NCBI GenBank assembly: GCA_903845065.1
Contig: CAIMWH010000063.1
Span: forward strand, 40,003-104,002
Source: an uncultured Rhodospirillales bacterium
GTDB lineage: Bacteria > Pseudomonadota > Alphaproteobacteria > Acetobacterales > Acetobacteraceae
Length of the DNA stretch: 64,000 bases
Reading direction: 5' to 3'
Shown piece after piece: positions 11,923 through 19,827 of the stretch. A model generated the notes under the pieces. That model was not told the origin of the DNA. It ran no database searches and saw nothing but the letters and a program-made list of their open reading frames with translations. Made by a program: the position numbers and the translations under genes. The number at the start of each line of letters is the position of its first letter. The first letter of the stretch is position 1.

Positions 11923-13383
11923 CTAGTCGGCGGCCACGTCCGGCAACATCTCCGCCAGCATTACGGCGCCATTCCACTCCTGCAGGATGGCGACCGCGGC
12001 ATCACGCGCATCCGCGCTGCCCATTACCACCACATGCGGCCGCAGCATGCGGATCATCTCGTCTGCCGCGTCGTTGGTATCCACGATCACCAGGTCGACC
12101 GACGGCAGGCTGGCCAGCCGCGCCGCCCGCACCGCCTCGGTCTGATGCGGCCGCGAATCCCCCTTCGCCCGCCGCACCGCCGCATCACCCTGCACCGCCA
12201 CGATCAACCGGTCGCACGCGCCATGCGCCTGCTCGATCAAATGCACATGCCCCGGCTTCAACGGATCGAACGCGCCATCGGTATAGCCGATCCGCCATGC
12301 GCTCCGCCGCCAGCGTTCCGCCAGCCGCGCCGCCACTTCCCGTGACACGATTTTCCGCAGCGCCCCGGCATGAGGCGAAATTGCTGCCAGCAGATCACTC
12401 TCCCGCACCACCGAGGTGCCGATCTTGCCCACCACCACACCGGCCGCGATGTTGGCCAACCGCGTCGCCATCCGCAGGCTGAGCCCGGCCGCCAGCCCGG
12501 CCCCGAGCGTCGCCAGCGCCGTATCGCCGGTGCCCGCGATATCGAACACTTCCGCCGATTCGGCCGGGAAATGCTGCGTCCCGTCGCTGTCCACCAGCGT
12601 CATCCCGTCCTCGCCCCGGGTCACCAGCACGGCGCCGAAGCCATGCCGATCGCGCAGCACCGCCGCCGCGGCCGACACCACCGCATCACCATCCGTCGGC
12701 ATCCCGGTCGCCGCCGCGAGGTCCCGCGCGGCCGCCATCACCACATTGGCCCCGGCATAGCGGTGGTAATCCGCCGCATGCACATCCGCCACCACCCGCC
12801 GCCCCGCCGCCTGCGCCGCCGCGATGATCTGCGACGGCACATCGCCAGCCAGCACGCCCTTGCGATAGTCTGACAAAATCACCACCGAGGTCGCGCCGAT
12901 CGCATCGCGCGCGATCTTCATCATCCGGTCCACCAGCTTGGGATGGATCGGCCGCCCATCTTCCCGGTCAGCCCGCATGATCTGGTGCCCCTGCACCGCG
13001 CGTCCCTGGGCGATAAAGCGCGTCTTCAGCGTCGTCACCCGCCGCCCCTGCACCAGCAGCCACGGCTCCACGCCCGACTGACTGCCGATCAACCCGGTCA
13101 AATCCCCGCCGGCCTCGTCATCCCCCACGATCGAGACGAACGCCACCGCCGCCCGCAGCGCCGCCAGGTTGCGCACCACATTGGCAGCCCCCCCCGGCAC
13201 CGCCAACTCGTTCTCCACCTTCAGCACCGGCACCGGCGCCTCGGGGCTGATCCGATCGACCGCCCCATACACGTAGCGATCCAGCATCGCATCGCCGATG
13301 ACGAGAACCTGCGAGTTCGCCAGACGGCGAACGGCGGCGGAGAGTTCGGCGATGGCGGCTTCGGCCGCAGTCTCGGGGCTCAT
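11923..13383 (-). CDS. hldE: bifunctional D-beta-D-heptose 7-phosphate kinase / D-beta-D-heptose 1-phosphate adenylyltransferase
   Basis: 486 aa. The N-terminal half is a pfkB-type kinase (VIGDAMLDRYVYG, PEAPVPV, GAANV). The C-terminal half is a cytidylyltransferase-like domain (GYTDGAFDPLKPGHVHL). Confidence 0.9.
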   Translation of the reverse strand: MSPETAAEAAIAELSAAVRRLANSQVLVIGDAMLDRYVYGAVDRISPEAPVPVLKVENELAVPGGAANVVRNLAALRAAVAFVSIVGDDEAGGDLTGLIGSQSGVEPWLLVQGRRVTTLKTRFIAQGRAVQGHQIMRADREDGRPIHPKLVDRMMKIARDAIGATSVVILSDYRKGVLAGDVPSQIIAAAQAAGRRVVADVHAADYHRYAGANVVMAAARDLAAATGMPTDGDAVVSAAAAVLRDRHGFGAVLVTRGEDGMTLVDSDGTQHFPAESAEVFDIAGTGDTALATLGAGLAAGLSLRMATRLANIAAGVVVGKIGTSVVRESDLLAAISPHAGALRKIVSREVAARLAERWRRSAWRIGYTDGAFDPLKPGHVHLIEQAHGACDRLIVAVQGDAAVRRAKGDSRPHQTEAVRAARLASLPSVDLVIVDTNDAADEMIRMLRPHVVVMGSADARDAAVAILQEWNGAVMLAEMLPDVAAD

Positions 13384-13428: not shown

Positions 13429-14142
13429 TCAGCCCACCAGGAAATCCACGCTGTCTTCCTCCAGCACCGCGCAGGTCAAATCGCCGCCCAGCACCGCCCC
13501 GGTGTCGATCCCGATCCGGTGCGGCAACACCATCGGCTCCCGCGCCGGCGTATGCCCATGCACCGCCACCGCCGGCAGTTCACCGCGGTATGACAGGAAC
13601 GGCTCGCGGATCCACAGCATGTCCTCGCGGCTCTGCTCGTACAGCGCCACCCCCGGCCGCAGCCCGGCATGCACGAAAACATACCCGCCCACCCGGTGCG
13701 CAATGCCAAGCCCGCGCATCAGCCCAAGCTGCACCGGCGGTATCCCCGCCTCCCACACCGCCGGCGGATCGCGCCACGACAGCCCCCAACTCGCCAGCGT
13801 CTCCCCACCGCCATTGGCCAGCCAGTGCTGCGCATCCGCCCGATCATTGGAGGCCAGCGCCCGCAACAACATATCTTCGTGATTGCCCATCAGATTGGCC
13901 ACCGTCAGCCCCGGCGCCACCGGGGCGGCCAGCCGCGCCAGCACCCCCGCCGAATTCGGCCCGCGATCGATGTAGTCCCCCAGATGCACCAGCAGCGGAT
14001 GCGCCACCGGCCGCGCCGCCAGGTCCGCGATGATGGCGGCATGCATCGCCGCCAGCCGATCGTCACAGCCGTGCACGTCGCCGATCGCATAAACCCGAAT
14101 ACCGGCCGCCAAACTGGCCGGCGCTAACTGCGCGGTAACCAT
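13429..14142 (-). CDS. PPP-family metallophosphoesterase (ApaH/PrpA-like serine/threonine or dinucleoside-polyphosphate phosphatase)
   Basis: ATG 14142 (MVTAQLAP...). PPP motifs are present: GDVHG, GDYIDRG, GNHE, then VHAG and HGHTP. Confidence 0.8.
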   Translation of the reverse strand: MVTAQLAPASLAAGIRVYAIGDVHGCDDRLAAMHAAIIADLAARPVAHPLLVHLGDYIDRGPNSAGVLARLAAPVAPGLTVANLMGNHEDMLLRALASNDRADAQHWLANGGGETLASWGLSWRDPPAVWEAGIPPVQLGLMRGLGIAHRVGGYVFVHAGLRPGVALYEQSREDMLWIREPFLSYRGELPAVAVHGHTPAREPMVLPHRIGIDTGAVLGGDLTCAVLEEDSVDFLVG

Positions 14143-14251
14143 AACGCCGCAGCCTAGCGGCACGATCCTCCGGGCGCGAGTGCCAGCCCGCGGACAGGAT
14201 CGGCGGAGACCAAAAAATGGACCATCTGCCGGAAAATCCGGGGTGCCCGCC

Positions 14252-15598
14252 ATGAGTGGCCGGCTTGCCTCACTGCCGTCCGCGCGCGGTGAACCGTCGG
14301 CCGAGTTCATGCCTGGCGAACGCCAACTGCTGGAAGCCGCCCGCCGCGCCACCCAGCCGGCCGGCGCCGCCCTCATGATCGCCTTCAGCCAGTTCCCCGC
14401 CCCCGGCCCCCGCCAGCATCACCGCCGCGTTGCCCGTGCCCTCCTCGATGACGCCGCCCAGCGCCATGGCGGCCAGGTCTACGGCATGCGCAACAGTGAC
14501 ATCGTGCTGCTCTGCCCCGCCGCCGCCCTGCGCGCCCCGGCCACCAGCCGCGCCAACACCCAATCCCTCGAAACCCTCCCCGAACTCCTCACCCGCCTGC
14601 TGCGCCCCGAAGCCGCCGACGGCTTTGCCCCCCTCGCCATCTGGCCGCTGCCCGAAGCGCGGGACCGCTTACTCGCCTACACCACCGAGCGCCTCGCCGA
14701 TGGCGGCCTCACCCCGCTGGACCGCGCGGTGGCCCAGGCCGAAACTCCACTCGGCCTCACCGCCGCCGCCGAGGCACGCCTGCTGCCCGATCTCCTGCAA
14801 CGCCAGACCGCGGTGCAAATCGGCGGCACCCCGCGCCTGCGCCCGCTCTTCCGCGAAATCACCTACGCCACCGCCGCCCTGCAGGCCGAAGCCGGCGCCG
14901 ACCCGCTCGAAAGCGACCCCTTCCTGCTCCGCCACTTCGCCACCCGCCTGGAGGAGCGTGTCCTCACCGCGCTGCCCGCCGAAGTCGGCCGCCGCGGCGC
15001 GCTCGATCTCGCCCAGGGGCCCCGCCTGCACATCAACCTCGCCCCGGAATCCGTCACCACGGACGCCTTTGCCACCCTGGTCGCCATCTGCCGCACCCGC
15101 CGCGTCGGTCTCGGCGTCGAAATCGCCCTCGTCGATGCCGCCGCCGATCCCGAGAGTTTCGCCGCCGCCCGCACCATCCTCGCCGCCAGCGGCGTTACCT
15201 GCGTGATCGACCAGGTCTCCCTGCTCGCCCTGCGCCTCTCCCGCCCCGCCGCCCTCGGTCCCGATCTCGTCAAGCTCGAATGGGCACCGCGCTTCGCCCA
15301 CCTCACCACCGCCGAACTGCGGGACGTCGAAACCGCCTTCGCCGAAATCACTCCCGCCCGCGTCATCCTCGCCGGCGCCGACAGCGAGGCCGCCCTGCAA
15401 TGGGGCCTGATGCGCGGCATCCACCGCTTCCAGGGCCGCCATGTCGACGCCATGCTCGCCGCCAGCCGCATCGCCGGCTGCCCCGAGGCCGCCGCCTGCA
15501 CCCTGCGTCAATGCATCGAGCGCGCCAGCGCCGTCGCCCTCGGCGGCCGCGTCGGCTGCCGCAACACTCCCCTGCTCGACGCCGGGGCCCCCGCATGA
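14252..15598 (+). CDS. hypothetical protein with degenerate EAL-like C-terminal domain (paralogue 1)
   Basis: ORF 14180..15598. I chose the ATG at 14252 by alignment with the downstream paralogue. EAL-like blocks are LHINLAPES, GVEIALVD, CVIDQVS..LVKLEW and VILAGADSEAALQWGLMRGIHRFQG. The C-terminal tail carries 4 Cys (CPEAAACTLRQC...C). Confidence 0.6.
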   Translation: MSGRLASLPSARGEPSAEFMPGERQLLEAARRATQPAGAALMIAFSQFPAPGPRQHHRRVARALLDDAAQRHGGQVYGMRNSDIVLLCPAAALRAPATSRANTQSLETLPELLTRLLRPEAADGFAPLAIWPLPEARDRLLAYTTERLADGGLTPLDRAVAQAETPLGLTAAAEARLLPDLLQRQTAVQIGGTPRLRPLFREITYATAALQAEAGADPLESDPFLLRHFATRLEERVLTALPAEVGRRGALDLAQGPRLHINLAPESVTTDAFATLVAICRTRRVGLGVEIALVDAAADPESFAAARTILAASGVTCVIDQVSLLALRLSRPAALGPDLVKLEWAPRFAHLTTAELRDVETAFAEITPARVILAGADSEAALQWGLMRGIHRFQGRHVDAMLAASRIAGCPEAAACTLRQCIERASAVALGGRVGCRNTPLLDAGAPA

Positions 15599-16764
15599 CC
15601 GCCGCCCTCGCCCGCCGGGACATGCCCGACGAAGTCACCCGCCAGGGCAGCCCGGAGGATGCCCGCCGTCTCGCCACCCTGGTGCGCGAATGCGGCACCG
15701 CCGGCATCGGCCGCGCCGTCCTCCTCCTCCGCCTCTCCCAACTCCCCGAAGGCCGCACCCGCCCGCACCACCTCCAACTCGCGCGGGACGCCCTGCTGCC
15801 CCTCACCGGCGCCGCCCGCGCGCAACTCTTCCACCTCCCCAACCAGGATCACGTCGTGGTCTGGCGCGGCGAAACCCCCGCCTTGCGCGCCAGCCTCGAC
15901 ACCCTGCGCCACCTGTTCTCCGATGACCCCAGCTTCGGGCCGGACCCGATGGCCATCGCCAGCGTCCTCGCCCTCCCGGATGACGCCGCCCTGCTCCACC
16001 ACGTCATCGCCGAAAGCCTGCGCCCCCGCACCCCGCCGCCCCCGCCGCGCGGCGCCGGCCAACCGCTCGATCCGCCCACCTTGCTCGCCCTCGAACGCGC
16101 CATCGCCCAGGCCGACATGAGCCGCTTCGCCCGCCGCGAACCGATCTGCCGCGCCGGGCTCGAAGGCTTCCGCCTCGCCTGGGAACGCCGCTACCTGTCC
16201 GACAGCGAACTCTTCGACACCATCCTGCCCGACCGCGCGCCCCGCGCCGACCTCTGGCTCTTCCGCCGCCTCACCCGCACCCTCGATCGCCGCATGCTGA
16301 GCCTCCTCGCCGCCACCGAGGAACTGCGCGGCGTGCCCCCCTTCAGCATCAATCTCAACGTCGCCAGCCTGCTCGGCCCGGAATTCCTCCGCTTCGATGC
16401 CAACCTCCCCGCCGCCTTGCGCGGCCAGGTCGTCCTCAACCTCCACCCCGAGGACATCCTGACCGACCTCGCCAGCTTCTGCTTCGCCCGCGATTTCGCC
16501 GCCGCCCGCGGCTACCGCCTGCTGCTGCACGATGTCGGCCTCACCCAGCTCGCCCTCCTTCCCCCCACCCGCCTCGGGTTCGATTGCGTGCAACTCCGCT
16601 TCACCGCGCCGCTCACCGCCGAAGTCCTGCCGCCCGACATCGATCCGGAAACCGTCATCCTCGGCCAGGCCGACGATACCGCCGCCCTCTCCTGGGGCCG
16701 CTCCCAGGGCATCGGCCTCTATCAGGGCCGCATCGCACGGCTGCCCCACCGGTCCGGCCGATAG
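15595..16764 (+). CDS. hypothetical protein with degenerate EAL-like C-terminal domain (paralogue 2)
   Basis: ATG 15595 overlaps the previous stop as ATGA. It is collinear with paralogue 1: LSQLP..RPHH N-terminal block, FSINLNVAS, VVLNLHPED, LLLHDVG..CVQLRF, VILGQADDTAALSWGRSQGIGLYQG. Confidence 0.6.
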   Translation: MTAALARRDMPDEVTRQGSPEDARRLATLVRECGTAGIGRAVLLLRLSQLPEGRTRPHHLQLARDALLPLTGAARAQLFHLPNQDHVVVWRGETPALRASLDTLRHLFSDDPSFGPDPMAIASVLALPDDAALLHHVIAESLRPRTPPPPPRGAGQPLDPPTLLALERAIAQADMSRFARREPICRAGLEGFRLAWERRYLSDSELFDTILPDRAPRADLWLFRRLTRTLDRRMLSLLAATEELRGVPPFSINLNVASLLGPEFLRFDANLPAALRGQVVLNLHPEDILTDLASFCFARDFAAARGYRLLLHDVGLTQLALLPPTRLGFDCVQLRFTAPLTAEVLPPDIDPETVILGQADDTAALSWGRSQGIGLYQGRIARLPHRSGR

Positions 16765-16822: not shown

Positions 16823-17557
16823 ATGGACGCGATCACCGTCGAGGCGTTGACCAAGCGCTACGGCGATACCCTCGCCGTCGACAACATCGCCTTCGCCGTC
16901 GCCCCCGGCGCCACCATCGGCCTGCTCGGCGGCAACGGGGCCGGCAAGACCACCACCATTTCCATGCTGCTCGGCCTCCTCGTCCCCACCGCCGGGCGCA
17001 TCACCGTGCTCGGGCATGACATGGCGACCGACCGTTTCGCCGCCCTCGCCCGGATGAACTTCTCCTCCCCCTACGTCGCCCTGCCGCACCGCCTTACCGT
17101 CGGCGAAAACCTCCGCGTCTACGCCCACCTCTACAACATCCGCCACACCGAACGCCGCATCGCCGAACTCGCCGACCAACTGAACCTCGGCGCCCTGCTC
17201 AACCGCCCCGCCGGCGAACTCTCCGCCGGCCAGAAAACCCGCGTCGCTTTGGCCAAGTCCCTCATCAACCGGCCGGATGTCCTGCTGCTCGATGAACCCA
17301 CCGCCAGCCTCGATCCTGACACCGGGGACCTCGTGCGCACCTGGCTCGAGCGCTACCGGGCGGAAAGCGGCTGCGCCATCCTGCTCGCCAGCCACAACAT
17401 GGCCGAGGTCGAACGCCTGTGTGACCATGTGCTGATGATGAAGCAGGGCCGCATCGTCGATCGCGGCAGCCCCGCGGACCTGCTGGAGCGCTACGGCCGC
17501 GATACCCTGGAAGCCGTCTTCCTCGATATCGCCCGCGGCACCGGAGAGGCGGCATGA
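16823..17557 (+). CDS. ABC transporter ATP-binding protein (ABC-2/DrrA-like exporter type)
   Basis: ATG 16823 follows GAGGA. Walker A is GGNGAGKTT, the signature is LSAGQKTR and Walker B is LLLDEPTASLD. Confidence 0.9.
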   Translation: MDAITVEALTKRYGDTLAVDNIAFAVAPGATIGLLGGNGAGKTTTISMLLGLLVPTAGRITVLGHDMATDRFAALARMNFSSPYVALPHRLTVGENLRVYAHLYNIRHTERRIAELADQLNLGALLNRPAGELSAGQKTRVALAKSLINRPDVLLLDEPTASLDPDTGDLVRTWLERYRAESGCAILLASHNMAEVERLCDHVLMMKQGRIVDRGSPADLLERYGRDTLEAVFLDIARGTGEAA

Positions 17558-18354
17558 TCCCCGCCGGCCGCCGCATCTGGGGCCTGATGTACCGCCACAT
17601 CGCCCTCTATCGCCGCTCATGGCCCCGCCTGCTCGAACTGGCCTACTGGCCGACTTTGCAGATGTGCATCTGGGGCTTCACCGCCAGCTTCTTCGCCGGG
17701 CGCACCGGCTCCGCCGCCGCCGTCACCATCGGCGGGCTGCTCGGCGCCGTGCTGCTGTGGGAAGTTGCCCTGCGCAGCCAGATGGGGGTGGCGATCTCCT
17801 TCCTCGAGGAAATCTGGTCCCGCAACCTCGGCCACGTGTTCGTCAGCCCGCTGCGCCCGTGGGAGCTGGTCGCCGCGCTCATCGCCATGTCAATCTTGCG
17901 CACCCTGGCCGGCGTGCTGCCCGCCGTGCTGCTGGCCTGGCTGCTCTACGCCTTCAACATGTTCAGCCTCGGCCCGGCACTGATCCTGTTCACCATCAAC
18001 CTGATGGTGATGGGCTGGTGGGTCTCCCTCGGCGTGGTCAGCCTCATCCTGCGCCACGGTGCCGGCGCGGAAGCGCTCGCCTGGTCCGTGCTGTTCGGCA
18101 TCACCCCGTTCGCCGCGGTGTTCTACCCGGTGAGCATCCTGCCGCCCTACCTCCAGCCCGTCGCCCTCGCCCTGCCCGCCGCCCATGTGTTCGAAGGCAT
18201 GCGCGCCGTGCTCGCCGGCAGCGCCTTTCCGTGGGGCGAACTCGCAGCCGCCAGCGGGCTAAATCTGCTGTGGCTCGCCGCCGCCACCCTGCTCTTCGCC
18301 CGCCAGTTCCACGCCGCCCGCGTCCGCGGCGCCCTCCTCTCCATCGGGGAATGA
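17554..18354 (+). CDS. ABC-2 type transporter permease
   Basis: 266 aa with six hydrophobic segments. The start overlaps the ATPase stop as ATGA. Confidence 0.8.
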   Translation: MIPAGRRIWGLMYRHIALYRRSWPRLLELAYWPTLQMCIWGFTASFFAGRTGSAAAVTIGGLLGAVLLWEVALRSQMGVAISFLEEIWSRNLGHVFVSPLRPWELVAALIAMSILRTLAGVLPAVLLAWLLYAFNMFSLGPALILFTINLMVMGWWVSLGVVSLILRHGAGAEALAWSVLFGITPFAAVFYPVSILPPYLQPVALALPAAHVFEGMRAVLAGSAFPWGELAAASGLNLLWLAAATLLFARQFHAARVRGALLSIGE

Positions 18355-18989
18355 CCATGACCCATACCGGCACCCACACCAGCTTCTGGCTGATCCGCCA
18401 CGCCCTCGTCGAGGAAAACGCCCGGGCGATGCTCTACGGCACCATGGATGTCGAACTCTGCCCACACAGCCTGGAATCCGAACGCCCCACCTACGCCGCC
18501 CTCGCCCGCCGCCTGCCCCGCCCGGCCGACTGGATCGTCACGCCGCTCTCCCGCACCCGCCGCACCGCCGAAGCCATCTTCGCCGCCGGCTACCCCGGGG
18601 CCGAATGGCGCGTCGAGCCCGACCTCATCGAGCAGGACCTCGGGGAATGGCAGGGCCTGGCCCACGCCGAACTCCCCGCCCGCCTCACTTTGCCCGCCCA
18701 CCCGTTCTGGCCCCATGCCGGCCAGGAATTGCCGCCCGGCGGCGAGAGCATGGGCGAAGTGGTGCTGCGCGTCGGCGCCACCCTCGAACGCCTCGCCCGC
18801 GCCCACCCCGGCGAAGACCTCGTGGTGGTCAGCCACGGCGGCGCCATCCGCGCCGCCATCGCCCACGCGCTGGGAATTGGCCCGGACAATGCGCTGCATC
18901 TGTCCATCCACAACCTCTCCCTCACCCGCCTCGAACGCCACCGCGACGGCTGGCGCGCGGTCTGCGTCAACGAAACCGTTGGTGCCTGA
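18351..18989 (+). CDS. histidine phosphatase family protein (phosphoglycerate mutase-like)
   Basis: ATG 18351 overlaps the permease stop as ATGA. It has the RHG-type motif LIRHAL and a distal VVSHGGAIRAA motif. Confidence 0.85.
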   Translation: MTMTHTGTHTSFWLIRHALVEENARAMLYGTMDVELCPHSLESERPTYAALARRLPRPADWIVTPLSRTRRTAEAIFAAGYPGAEWRVEPDLIEQDLGEWQGLAHAELPARLTLPAHPFWPHAGQELPPGGESMGEVVLRVGATLERLARAHPGEDLVVVSHGGAIRAAIAHALGIGPDNALHLSIHNLSLTRLERHRDGWRAVCVNETVGA

Positions 18990-19161
18990 GAATCTTCGCC
19001 AGACATGAACATTTGGTTGGGAAACGTCGTCAGGCTTGCTTGACAACTTATTACCGCCGCAGTGTGCCCACATAGCGTGAGCCGGCCCGATTCGCGTGCC
19101 CGCGCACTGGTTCCAGCCGCGCTGGCCGCTGCCCAACTGGCCCTTCCCCGGGAGACTCCTG

Positions 19162-19827
19162 ATGATCCGCATTCTTTTCGCTGCCCTGCTCGCCCTCGTC
19201 CCCTTCGCCGCCCAGGCGCAAACCGAGCAGCAAACCCTGGTCGACCGCTCCACCCTCGTCGTGCAGGAAATGCTCGGCGACCAGAACGCCACTGACGCGC
19301 GCAACCTGCTGAAGCGGTCCAAGGGTGCCATGGTGTGCCCGCGCATCTTCAAGGCCGGCTTCTTCGTCGGCGGCCAGGGCGGCGGCTGCGTGCTGGTTGG
19401 CCGCGGGCCGGACGGCAAATGGTCGTCCCCCGCCTTCTACAGCATGGGCAGCGCCAGCGTCGGCCTGCAGATCGGCGTCCAGGATGCCGAGATGATCTTC
19501 ATCGTGCTGACCGAAAAAGGCCTCCAGGCCCTGCTCGACAGCCAGTTCAAATTCGGTGCGGACGCCTCCGTGGCCGTCGCCTCCATCGGCGCCGGCGTCT
19601 CGGGCTCCACCACCGCGGCACTGCGCGCCGACATCGTCTCCTTCGCCCAGGCGCGCGGCCTGTTCGCCGGCATCTCGCTCGAAGGCAGCCTGCTGTCCAA
19701 CAAGTCCGACTGGAACACCGCCTATTACGGCAAGCCCATCGGTGCCCAGCAGCTCGTCATCGGCCAGGAAGGCCAGAACCAGGGCGCGGCCCCGTTGCAG
19801 GAAATGCTGGCCCGCTACGCGCAATAG
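19162..19827 (+). CDS. secreted SYLF (Ysc84/DUF500) lipid-binding domain protein
   Basis: ATG 19162. The signal peptide is MIRILFAALLALVPFAAQA. The glycine-rich SYLF-type core includes FFVGGQGGGCVLV, GLQIG and FGADASVA. Confidence 0.8.
   Translation: MIRILFAALLALVPFAAQAQTEQQTLVDRSTLVVQEMLGDQNATDARNLLKRSKGAMVCPRIFKAGFFVGGQGGGCVLVGRGPDGKWSSPAFYSMGSASVGLQIGVQDAEMIFIVLTEKGLQALLDSQFKFGADASVAVASIGAGVSGSTTAALRADIVSFAQARGLFAGISLEGSLLSNKSDWNTAYYGKPIGAQQLVIGQEGQNQGAAPLQEMLARYAQ

Follow-up and report, generated by a model that had tools for sequence, protein, structure and literature searches.

The DNA analyzed here is a stretch of 64,000 nucleotides (the window) from an uncultured bacterium of the Acetobacteraceae (contig CAIMWH010000063.1, positions 40,003 to 104,002 of the forward strand); all positions below count from its first letter. 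Our subject is a pair of adjacent genes, designated open reading frame 1 (ORF1) and ORF2, that encode paralogous proteins. Judging from their predicted structures, both are most likely doubly degenerate GGDEF-EAL proteins, probably inactive relatives of the enzymes that synthesize and degrade the bacterial signal cyclic di-GMP. Together they most likely work as a noncatalytic two-protein sensor, a heteromer that takes a metal or redox input and serves as a nucleotide receptor or as a scaffold. The pair has the following features.

14252..15598, plus strand: ORF1, 448 amino acids (aa); putative GGDEF-like domain, degenerate EAL domain, tail with four cysteines (Cys4 tail); soluble
14309..14701, plus strand: ORF1 N-terminal alpha/beta domain, about residues 20-150; RPHH motif (H56, H57) and D83 in a hairpin; probably a degenerate GGDEF-like domain
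14762..15478, plus strand: ORF1 EAL-like domain, about residues 171-409; Q185, E202, N262, E290, D295, D320, K341, E343, D377, E379, and Q394 conserved, Q321 and A374 substituted
15479..15559, plus strand: ORF1 Cys4 motif C410-x5-C416-x4-C421-x14-C436; modeled as an ordered mini-domain
15595..15598, plus strand: ATGA stop/start overlap of ORF1 and ORF2, indicative of translational coupling
15595..16764, plus strand: ORF2, 389 aa; putative GGDEF-like domain, more degenerate EAL-like domain, no Cys tail; soluble
15646..16020, plus strand: ORF2 N-terminal domain, about residues 18-142, a homologue of the ORF1 N-terminal domain; RPHH (P57, H58, H59), D85, W90, R91
16072..16734, plus strand: ORF2 EAL-like domain, about residues 160-380; reversed-charge or neutral residues K/R198, D/N253, N/D282, R/H312, Q333, and R335; D287, D360, Q377, and G378 kept

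The junction reads GCATGACC, in which the ATG of ORF2 (15595-15597) overlaps the TGA of ORF1 (15596-15598). The open reading frame list and this junction agree with the initial annotation, an earlier reading of the letters alone, in the coordinates and lengths of both genes and in their ATGA overlap. The G+C content at third codon positions is 0.87 in ORF1 and 0.91 in ORF2, as expected in a window of 68% G+C, and we therefore take both to be real genes. No transmembrane segment was detected in either protein; the sole hydrophobic peak of ORF1 is the strand of the EAL-like domain that carries D320.

ORF1 and ORF2 are paralogous over their whole length, far above chance. BLASTP aligns their C-terminal regions with 39% identity over 135 aa (Expect value [E-value] of 7e-12), and comparison of the two family profiles with hhalign gave E-values of 2.8e-18 for the N-terminal and 7.2e-30 for the C-terminal domains. 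These values bear out the collinear paralogy that had been read from the letters, and the N-terminal blocks and EAL-motif substitutions quoted at that time are all found as written.

AlphaFold2 models were built from alignments of 57 ORF1 and 53 ORF2 homologues and had a predicted local distance difference test score (pLDDT) of 87.5 and a predicted template modeling score of 0.67 for ORF1, and of 90.3 and 0.75 for ORF2. Foldseek matched both models to dozens of solved EAL domains with a probability of 1.00, and E-values of 1e-6 to 1e-12 against solved EAL structures confirm the EAL-like C-terminal fold that the motifs had suggested. The best matches of both proteins in the PDB are tandem GGDEF-EAL structures, aligned over some 430 to 450 columns: Vibrio cholerae LapD (2.4e-10), PA0575 (1.3e-9), RbdA (1.5e-9), and MorA (3e-9) for ORF1, and MorA (3.8e-12), PA0575 (4.9e-11), RbdA (6.5e-11), and LapD (about 1e-9) for ORF2. 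Chains with an EAL domain only gave E-values of 1e-5 to 1e-7 and target-normalized template modeling scores of about 0.5 to 0.6, and the E-values against the tandem structures are 100- to 10,000-fold better.

Sequence searches see much less of this. The Pfam EAL model (PF00563) scores 23.0 bits for ORF1 and 18.4 bits for ORF2, both under the curated gathering cutoff of 31.3, and at an E-value of 1 or lower it matches 40 of the 57 ORF1-family members (best, 1.2e-9) and 13 of the 53 ORF2-family members (best, 2.8e-4). Searching NCBIfam with ORF1 and ORF2 gave no match, single-sequence searches of the PDB with either gave nothing meaningful, and the ORF1 family profile found only marginal EAL matches in the PDB (E-value of 0.046). 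Neither protein has a further Pfam or NCBIfam domain, and input or output modules of the LapD or FimX type are absent from these search results.

Each protein starts about 20 residues ahead of its N-terminal domain, which in both models runs helix, strand, long helix, strand-strand hairpin, helix, strand, helix. This is the order of the GGDEF or nucleotidyl-cyclase fold. The hairpin sits at the place expected for GG[DE]EF and reads RNSDI in ORF1, with D83 invariant, and PNQDH in ORF2, and an RPHH motif is conserved in both families where the first GGDEF helix would lie. A short match of RHGGQVF to RYGGDEF is probably spurious, as the modeled hairpin is at RNSD, and no RxxD inhibitory-site motif was seen on reading the two sequences. 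The tandem GGDEF-EAL matches and the matching order of strands and helices lead us to read this domain, which the initial annotation had left unrecognized, as most likely an extremely degenerate GGDEF-like domain in both proteins, an assignment by fold and topology and not by demonstrated homology, since the sequence profiles are not significant. Both proteins would thus carry a tandem module in which both domains are catalytically degenerate, as in LapD and FimX.

The pair is widely conserved. Homologue searches returned at least 136 proteins for ORF1 and at least 379 for ORF2, almost all from metagenome-assembled genomes of Acetobacteraceae and Rhodospirillales; the named ones are mostly annotated as hypothetical proteins and a few as EAL domain-containing proteins. 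An exhaustive search with a joint profile of both paralogues, counted in clusters at 50% identity, found 1,968 clusters with an E-value of 1e-3 or lower, 1,519 at 1e-10, and 932 at 1e-30. A pattern scan of 185,579 species genomes identified 62 loci, including one in Limobrevibacterium gyesilva, and a locus in Rhodovastum atsumiense was found separately. All scanned loci are alphaproteobacterial bar one contig labeled Janthinobacterium; this contig (L043, JBPBQE010000039.1, from a metagenome-assembled genome named Janthinobacterium lividum) has match positions and identities nearly equal to those of the Acetobacteraceae loci L040 and L044 and is probably misbinned.

ORF1 precedes ORF2 in every related locus with enough sequence. 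The stop and start codons overlap by 4 nucleotides (ATGA or GTGA) in 40 of 63 loci and by 1 nucleotide in 6, and in most of the rest the genes are no more than a few nucleotides apart; the few larger spacings mostly belong to truncated or frameshifted gene copies. The coupling persists in relatives with just 30% identity. The conserved overlap is strong evidence for selection for coupled, stoichiometric expression, and the distribution of the pair argues against the strain-specific duplication that had been considered at the outset. The two genes are not conserved equally: the mean column identity is 52% for ORF2, which has 33 invariant columns, versus 38% for ORF1, and ORF2 identity exceeds ORF1 identity in nearly every locus.

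For a census of the active site, the family profiles were aligned to Escherichia coli DosP, PdeR, PdeH, and PdeL, and residues were counted over the 57 ORF1 and 53 ORF2 members. The canonical positions, with what we take to be their numbers in RocR, are occupied as follows.

Gln of YQP (Q161): ORF1, Q185 in 55 of 57; ORF2, R/E/Q182
Glu of EAL (E175): ORF1, E202 in 55 of 57; ORF2, K/R198
Arg of EALxR (R179): ORF1, S/A206; ORF2, S202
Asn (N233): ORF1, N262 in 54 of 57; ORF2, D/N253
First Glu of ExxE (E265): ORF1, E290 in 53 of 57; ORF2, N/D/E282
Acidic residue near the second Glu of ExxE: ORF1, E/D295 in 56 of 57; ORF2, D287 in 53 of 53
First Asp of DDFG (D295): ORF1, D320 in 54 of 57; ORF2, R/H312
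Second Asp of DDFG (D296): ORF1, Gly in 39 of 57 (Q321 in the window); ORF2, G/D313 (D313 in the window)
Lys of KxD (K316): ORF1, K341 in 56 of 57; ORF2, Q333
Asp of KxD (D318): ORF1, D/E343 in 55 of 57; ORF2, R335
Catalytic-base Glu of EGVE (E352): ORF1, H/A/Q/T/N, not conserved (A374 in the window); ORF2, G/S/A357 (G357 in the window)
Second Glu of the EGVE region: ORF1, D/E377 in 53 of 57 and E379 in 56 of 57; ORF2, D360 in 49 of 53
Gln of QG (Q372): ORF1, Q394 in 56 of 57; ORF2, Q377 in 43 of 53

The ligands of metal site 1 (E202, N262, E290, and D320) are thus each present in at least 93% of the ORF1 members, as are K341, Q394, Q185, E/D295, D/E343, D/E377, and E379. Site 1 is not retained in ORF2, where K/R198, D/N253, N/D/E282, and R/H312 take the places of its ligands; charges are reversed at three positions of the pocket, the Lys is gone, and four catalytic positions hold K/R, R/H, Q, and R. 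Neither family has the full set made up of the second Asp of DDFG, the EGVE base, and loop 6 (DFG(T/A)GYSS) that marks an active phosphodiesterase; loop 6 is unrecognizable in both and reads VSLLALRLS in ORF1. The assignment of the catalytic base is backed by a gapless alignment of VILAGADSEAAL with VVAEGVETKEQF, and a profile-to-PDB alignment with Caulobacter PdeA independently backs the N, E, D, and K assignments in ORF1. Loss of the EGVE base is a criterion for predicting an inactive EAL domain (PMC12900916), and because both proteins have lost it, both should be catalytically inactive. To the initial annotation both looked catalytically dead, the second more so. The catalytic set is indeed incomplete in both and worse in ORF2, but ORF1 keeps metal site 1, the Lys, and the Gln and is less dead than that wording implied; with its first metal site complete, it looks competent for ligand binding and probably still binds a metal and a nucleotide.

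In a marine Rhodospirillaceae clade (L071, 7001-9584; also Magnetospira), the ORF2-like member retains Glu, Asp, and Lys (VVELQ, IDGL, and IKVIW). Strong degeneration of the ORF2 pocket and possession of a Cys tail by ORF1 are thus lineage-specific traits.

None of C410, C416, C421, and C436 varies among the 57 ORF1 homologues that were aligned. The motif C-x5-C-[TS]-L-R-Q-C-x14-C occurs in 64 of 64 loci (L001-L064; two have x10 as the last spacing), down to relatives with 30% identity. A tail of four cysteines had thus been noticed correctly, but its spacing is x5, x4, x14 and not the x6, x4, x13 first given. AlphaFold2 models the tail as an ordered helix-loop-helix (pLDDT of 89 to 97), so that four invariant, closely spaced cysteines lie within an ordered element, as would be expected of a metal or iron-sulfur center. 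Pfam, NCBIfam, and PDB sequence searches returned no described family that covers the tail. In a cytoplasmic protein, the invariance of all four cysteines speaks for a center of the zinc or iron-sulfur type.

The pair is embedded in a conserved neighborhood, which in the window is composed of the following genes.

11923-13383, minus strand: HldE (ADP-heptose synthesis), upstream of the pair, beyond the metallophosphatase gene
13429..14142, minus strand: calcineurin-like metallophosphatase (PrpA/ApaH-like), 237 aa; divergent; about 46 of 66 loci have it ahead of the pair
16823..17557, plus strand: ABC transporter ATPase (DrrA/NodI-like), 58 nucleotides past ORF2
17554..18354, plus strand: ABC-2 type permease; ATGA overlap with the ATPase gene (17554-17557)
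18351..18989, plus strand: histidine phosphatase (His_Phos_1); ATGA overlap with the permease gene (18351-18354)
19096..19827, plus strand: Ysc84/SYLF-domain lipoprotein-like protein; synteny kept in many loci, among them the distant L070 and L071

The usual order, HldE and metallophosphatase on the minus strand followed by ORF1, ORF2, ABC ATPase, ABC-2 permease, histidine phosphatase, and Ysc84/SYLF on the plus strand, is also seen in Rhodovastum, in Rhodospirillaceae genomes with 30% identity, and in most other loci. The ATPase and permease genes follow the pair in 45 of 66 loci from three diverged clades, and in the marine locus L071 the stop codon of ORF2 abuts the ABC start codon. The three ATGA overlaps and the gap of only 58 nucleotides between ORF2 and the ATPase gene give ORF1, ORF2, the two transporter genes, and the histidine phosphatase gene the look of a five-gene operon; neither a sigma-70-like promoter nor an intrinsic terminator was found between 13300 and 19200.

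The spacer between the metallophosphatase gene and ORF1 measures 109 nucleotides (14143-14251), and the position of the metallophosphatase is kept in L070. A long open reading frame call (13429-14376) runs into ORF1, and the metallophosphatase probably starts at the ATG at 14142. A sugar-nucleotide epimerase gene adjoins the pair in L070 (2407-3348) and in L071 (4591-5535), and in Rhodovastum atsumiense a DDE transposase gene (L001, 814-1926) lies just past hldE, at the edge of the syntenic block. As a speculation from context, the histidine phosphatase might replace the heptose-bisphosphate phosphatase GmhB. A role in defense is ruled out, as PADLOC gave no hits and the genes that surround the locus in conserved order are housekeeping genes. 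Across the whole 64 kb, no Rfam match scores as high as the gathering threshold of its family. GC skew is negative in all 2-kb bins of the window (1-64000), and the steady fall of cumulative skew indicates that the window contains neither a replication origin nor a terminus.

How might the two proteins work? We hypothesize that the translationally coupled bicistron makes ORF1 and ORF2 in a fixed ratio and that they assemble, most likely through their EAL domains, into a heteromer; EAL-EAL dimerization coupled to binding of cyclic di-GMP (c-di-GMP) is established for LapD and for active phosphodiesterases (PMC3032553). We would not expect either protein to hydrolyze c-di-GMP at the usual speed. 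Because its first metal site and the nucleotide-contacting Gln and Lys are intact, ORF1 is probably the subunit that binds the ligand, which would be c-di-GMP or a similar nucleotide together with a divalent cation. ORF2 is the probable partner or output subunit, because its pocket is basic and yet the protein is the more conserved of the two. The Cys4 tail of ORF1 would bind a metal, either in an iron-sulfur cluster or as zinc, and may thereby let redox state or a metal act as a further input. As its output, the heteromer would probably control the ABC-2 exporter, whose genes usually come immediately after the pair. Taken jointly, as a soluble coupled heteromer with a ligand subunit, a partner or output subunit, a Cys4 metal input, and control of an exporter, this is our leading but still tentative explanation, with a little less than an even chance of being right in all its parts.

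Several observations pull the other way. The Pfam GGDEF model (PF00990) matches neither protein even at an E-value of 10, GGDEF_2 matches just 2 of 57 ORF1-family members (E-value of 0.0012), and hhalign comparisons of the N-terminal domains with four E. coli GGDEF domains are not significant (E-values of 0.17 and 0.19). BlrP1, a BLUF-EAL protein, was also aligned full-length to ORF1 by Foldseek, with an E-value about 100-fold weaker. ORF1 has S/A206 in place of the EALxR Arg, which contacts a phosphate of c-di-GMP in canonical domains. In the marine Rhodospirillaceae clade the pair is present but the Cys4 tail is missing, which indicates that the tail is dispensable for the core function. At least 12 loci have unrelated genes in the ABC position (those for YggT, FolD, RlmN, an ABC1 kinase, a Dyp peroxidase, and a major facilitator superfamily transporter), which rules out the ABC-2 exporter as an obligatory partner or target; it is a frequent, not an obligatory, partner. 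Finally, a single natural fusion is known among the homologues, the 712-aa protein P0251 (L070, 4406-6544), in which an ORF1-like unit of GGDEF-like and EAL-like domains without a Cys tail is joined to an ORF2-like EAL domain, between a metallophosphatase and a Ysc84 gene. Its close relatives are all separate proteins of about 425 aa, and as Rosetta-stone support for a complex this one-off is weak; two further candidates, P0241 and P0324, have the look of gene calls that arose by read-through or frameshift.

The strongest competitor is a nucleotide-independent scaffold for protein interactions, in which the EAL fold serves only as a binding surface, as in YdiV, CsrD, and BluF, and the pair regulates the ABC-2 exporter or another partner with no small molecule involved. 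The charge-reversed pocket of ORF2, the missing EALxR Arg of ORF1, and the sub-threshold Pfam EAL scores are what such a scaffold would lead one to expect, and the motifs with the strongest conservation are found away from the active site, e.g., WLFRRLTRTLDRRML in ORF2 and DPFLFRHLA.RLD.R in ORF1. We nevertheless consider it unlikely, though a serious contender: the conservation, at 93% or above, of the site 1 ligands, the Lys, the Gln, and three more acidic residues in ORF1 would be puzzling if selection did not act on a site for a metal or ligand.

The same residues could instead belong to an enzyme paired with a pseudoenzyme. ORF1 would be a slow or conditional phosphodiesterase that uses substitutes for the lost base (D/E377 or a His at position 374), ORF2 would activate or restrain it, and the Cys4 tail would act as a switch. 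The acidic set of ORF1 is nearly complete, with D/E377 and E379 beside the lost base and E/D295 near ExxE, both paralogues of the marine clade keep the E, D, and K residues, and EAL activity depends on dimerization (PMC3032553). However, 39 of 57 members have Gly for the second Asp of DDFG, the base position holds H/A/Q/T/N, and loop 6 is unrecognizable, losses that are inactivity criteria for EAL domains (PMC12900916), and we regard a working enzyme as quite unlikely.

A more specific form of the heteromeric receptor is improbable in our estimate: an obligate heterodimer built from dead GGDEF-EAL modules, in which a metal- and nucleotide-binding subunit would sense redox state, oxygen, or iron through an iron-sulfur cluster in the Cys4 tail and the other subunit would relay the combined signal to an ABC-2 transporter that exports a glycolipid or polysaccharide of the envelope. 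If true, it would represent a new coupling of c-di-GMP and redox state to export.

The neighboring genes suggest a receptor for another phosphorylated ligand, either a dinucleotide of the diadenosine tetraphosphate (Ap4A) type, in view of the PrpA/ApaH-like phosphatase upstream, or heptose phosphates or ADP-heptose, in view of HldE upstream and the histidine phosphatase downstream. The synteny from HldE and the metallophosphatase through the pair to the ABC, ABC-2, and histidine phosphatase genes is conserved down to 30% identity, the metallophosphatase is adjacent in L070 and the epimerase in both L070 and L071, and the composition of the pocket is altered. This proposal draws on context, its neighbors are not universally linked to the pair, and we know of no EAL-fold protein that binds Ap4A-type or heptose-phosphate ligands, which makes it more improbable still. 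A strain-specific duplication, decaying pseudogenes, or miscalled reading frames, for which only the sub-threshold Pfam scores could be cited, are already refuted by the hundreds of homologues of each protein, the 33 invariant columns of ORF2, the high third-position G+C content, the confident models, and the conserved overlap. Hence, with the EAL fold found, the catalytic residues incomplete, and the pair conserved, the core of the initial annotation holds.

Degenerate GGDEF-EAL proteins are a recognized class of c-di-GMP effectors, and the described examples (LapD, FimX, and CsrD) are, to our knowledge, all single polypeptides with canonical sensor or membrane modules. The pair suggests a division of labor, in which ORF1 keeps the predicted metal and nucleotide site and ORF2 has a charge-reversed pocket yet is more conserved. 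If the heteromer and its ligand prove true, c-di-GMP signaling would gain a heteromeric, possibly redox-sensitive type of receptor, and a family of about 1,500 sequence clusters in Acetobacteraceae and Rhodospirillales would gain a function. Culturable hosts of the pair exist in Rhodovastum atsumiense and Limobrevibacterium gyesilva. Full-text searches of the literature turned up no account of this family, nor of any EAL protein with an iron-sulfur cluster or any system that pairs degenerate EAL proteins.

Among proteins known to have an EAL fold without phosphodiesterase activity, YdiV/STM1344, BluF (YcgF), and CsrD act by binding macromolecules. They have lost nearly all metal ligands, which ORF1 keeps, are not known to bind c-di-GMP, and are not known as coupled paralogue pairs. 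Bacillus subtilis YkuI is closer to ORF1, which it matches in structure (2bas) and weakly by profile. Its EAL site is largely conserved, and it binds c-di-GMP and showed no activity, a precedent for an inactive EAL domain that keeps its metal ligands; however, its additional domain is C-terminal and PAS-like, not N-terminal and GGDEF-like, and it forms a homodimer without a paired paralogue. Two c-di-GMP-family proteins encoded in one operon, as in the pair, are found in E. coli, where dosC and dosP are adjacent and their products are reported to work as a complex, and the cdg operons of Komagataeibacter xylinus (pdeA-dgc) pair paralogous GGDEF-EAL proteins within the Acetobacteraceae. Those proteins are active and have heme, PAS, or globin sensors, whereas both members of the pair are degenerate and have no canonical sensor.

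LapD of Pseudomonas fluorescens and V. cholerae is a top or near-top structural match of both ORFs (6pwj, 6pwk, and 3pjw) and is likewise degenerate in both domains, at a sequence identity of 11 to 17%. Unlike the two soluble paralogues, one of which has a Cys4 tail, it is a single membrane homodimer with periplasmic, HAMP, and S-helix modules. It is not known to have the metal-site ligands that ORF1 keeps. Its EAL domain binds c-di-GMP and dimerizes (PMC3032553). FimX of Pseudomonas and Xanthomonas has a degenerate tandem module as well, with Foldseek E-values of 1e-5 to 1e-6 for its EAL domain, and signals through a partner protein (PilZ/PilB), i.e., by a protein-protein interaction to which we liken that proposed for the pair; it differs in its REC and PAS domains and is encoded by a single gene, without a Cys tail or a paralogous partner. 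[quoted passage not shown] What is new relative to this class is the arrangement as a soluble two-gene pair of paralogues without a canonical sensor or membrane module, the retention of metal site 1 in ORF1 together with a Cys4 tail that has not been described before, and a GGDEF-like domain that is past recognition by sequence and invisible to Pfam and NCBIfam.

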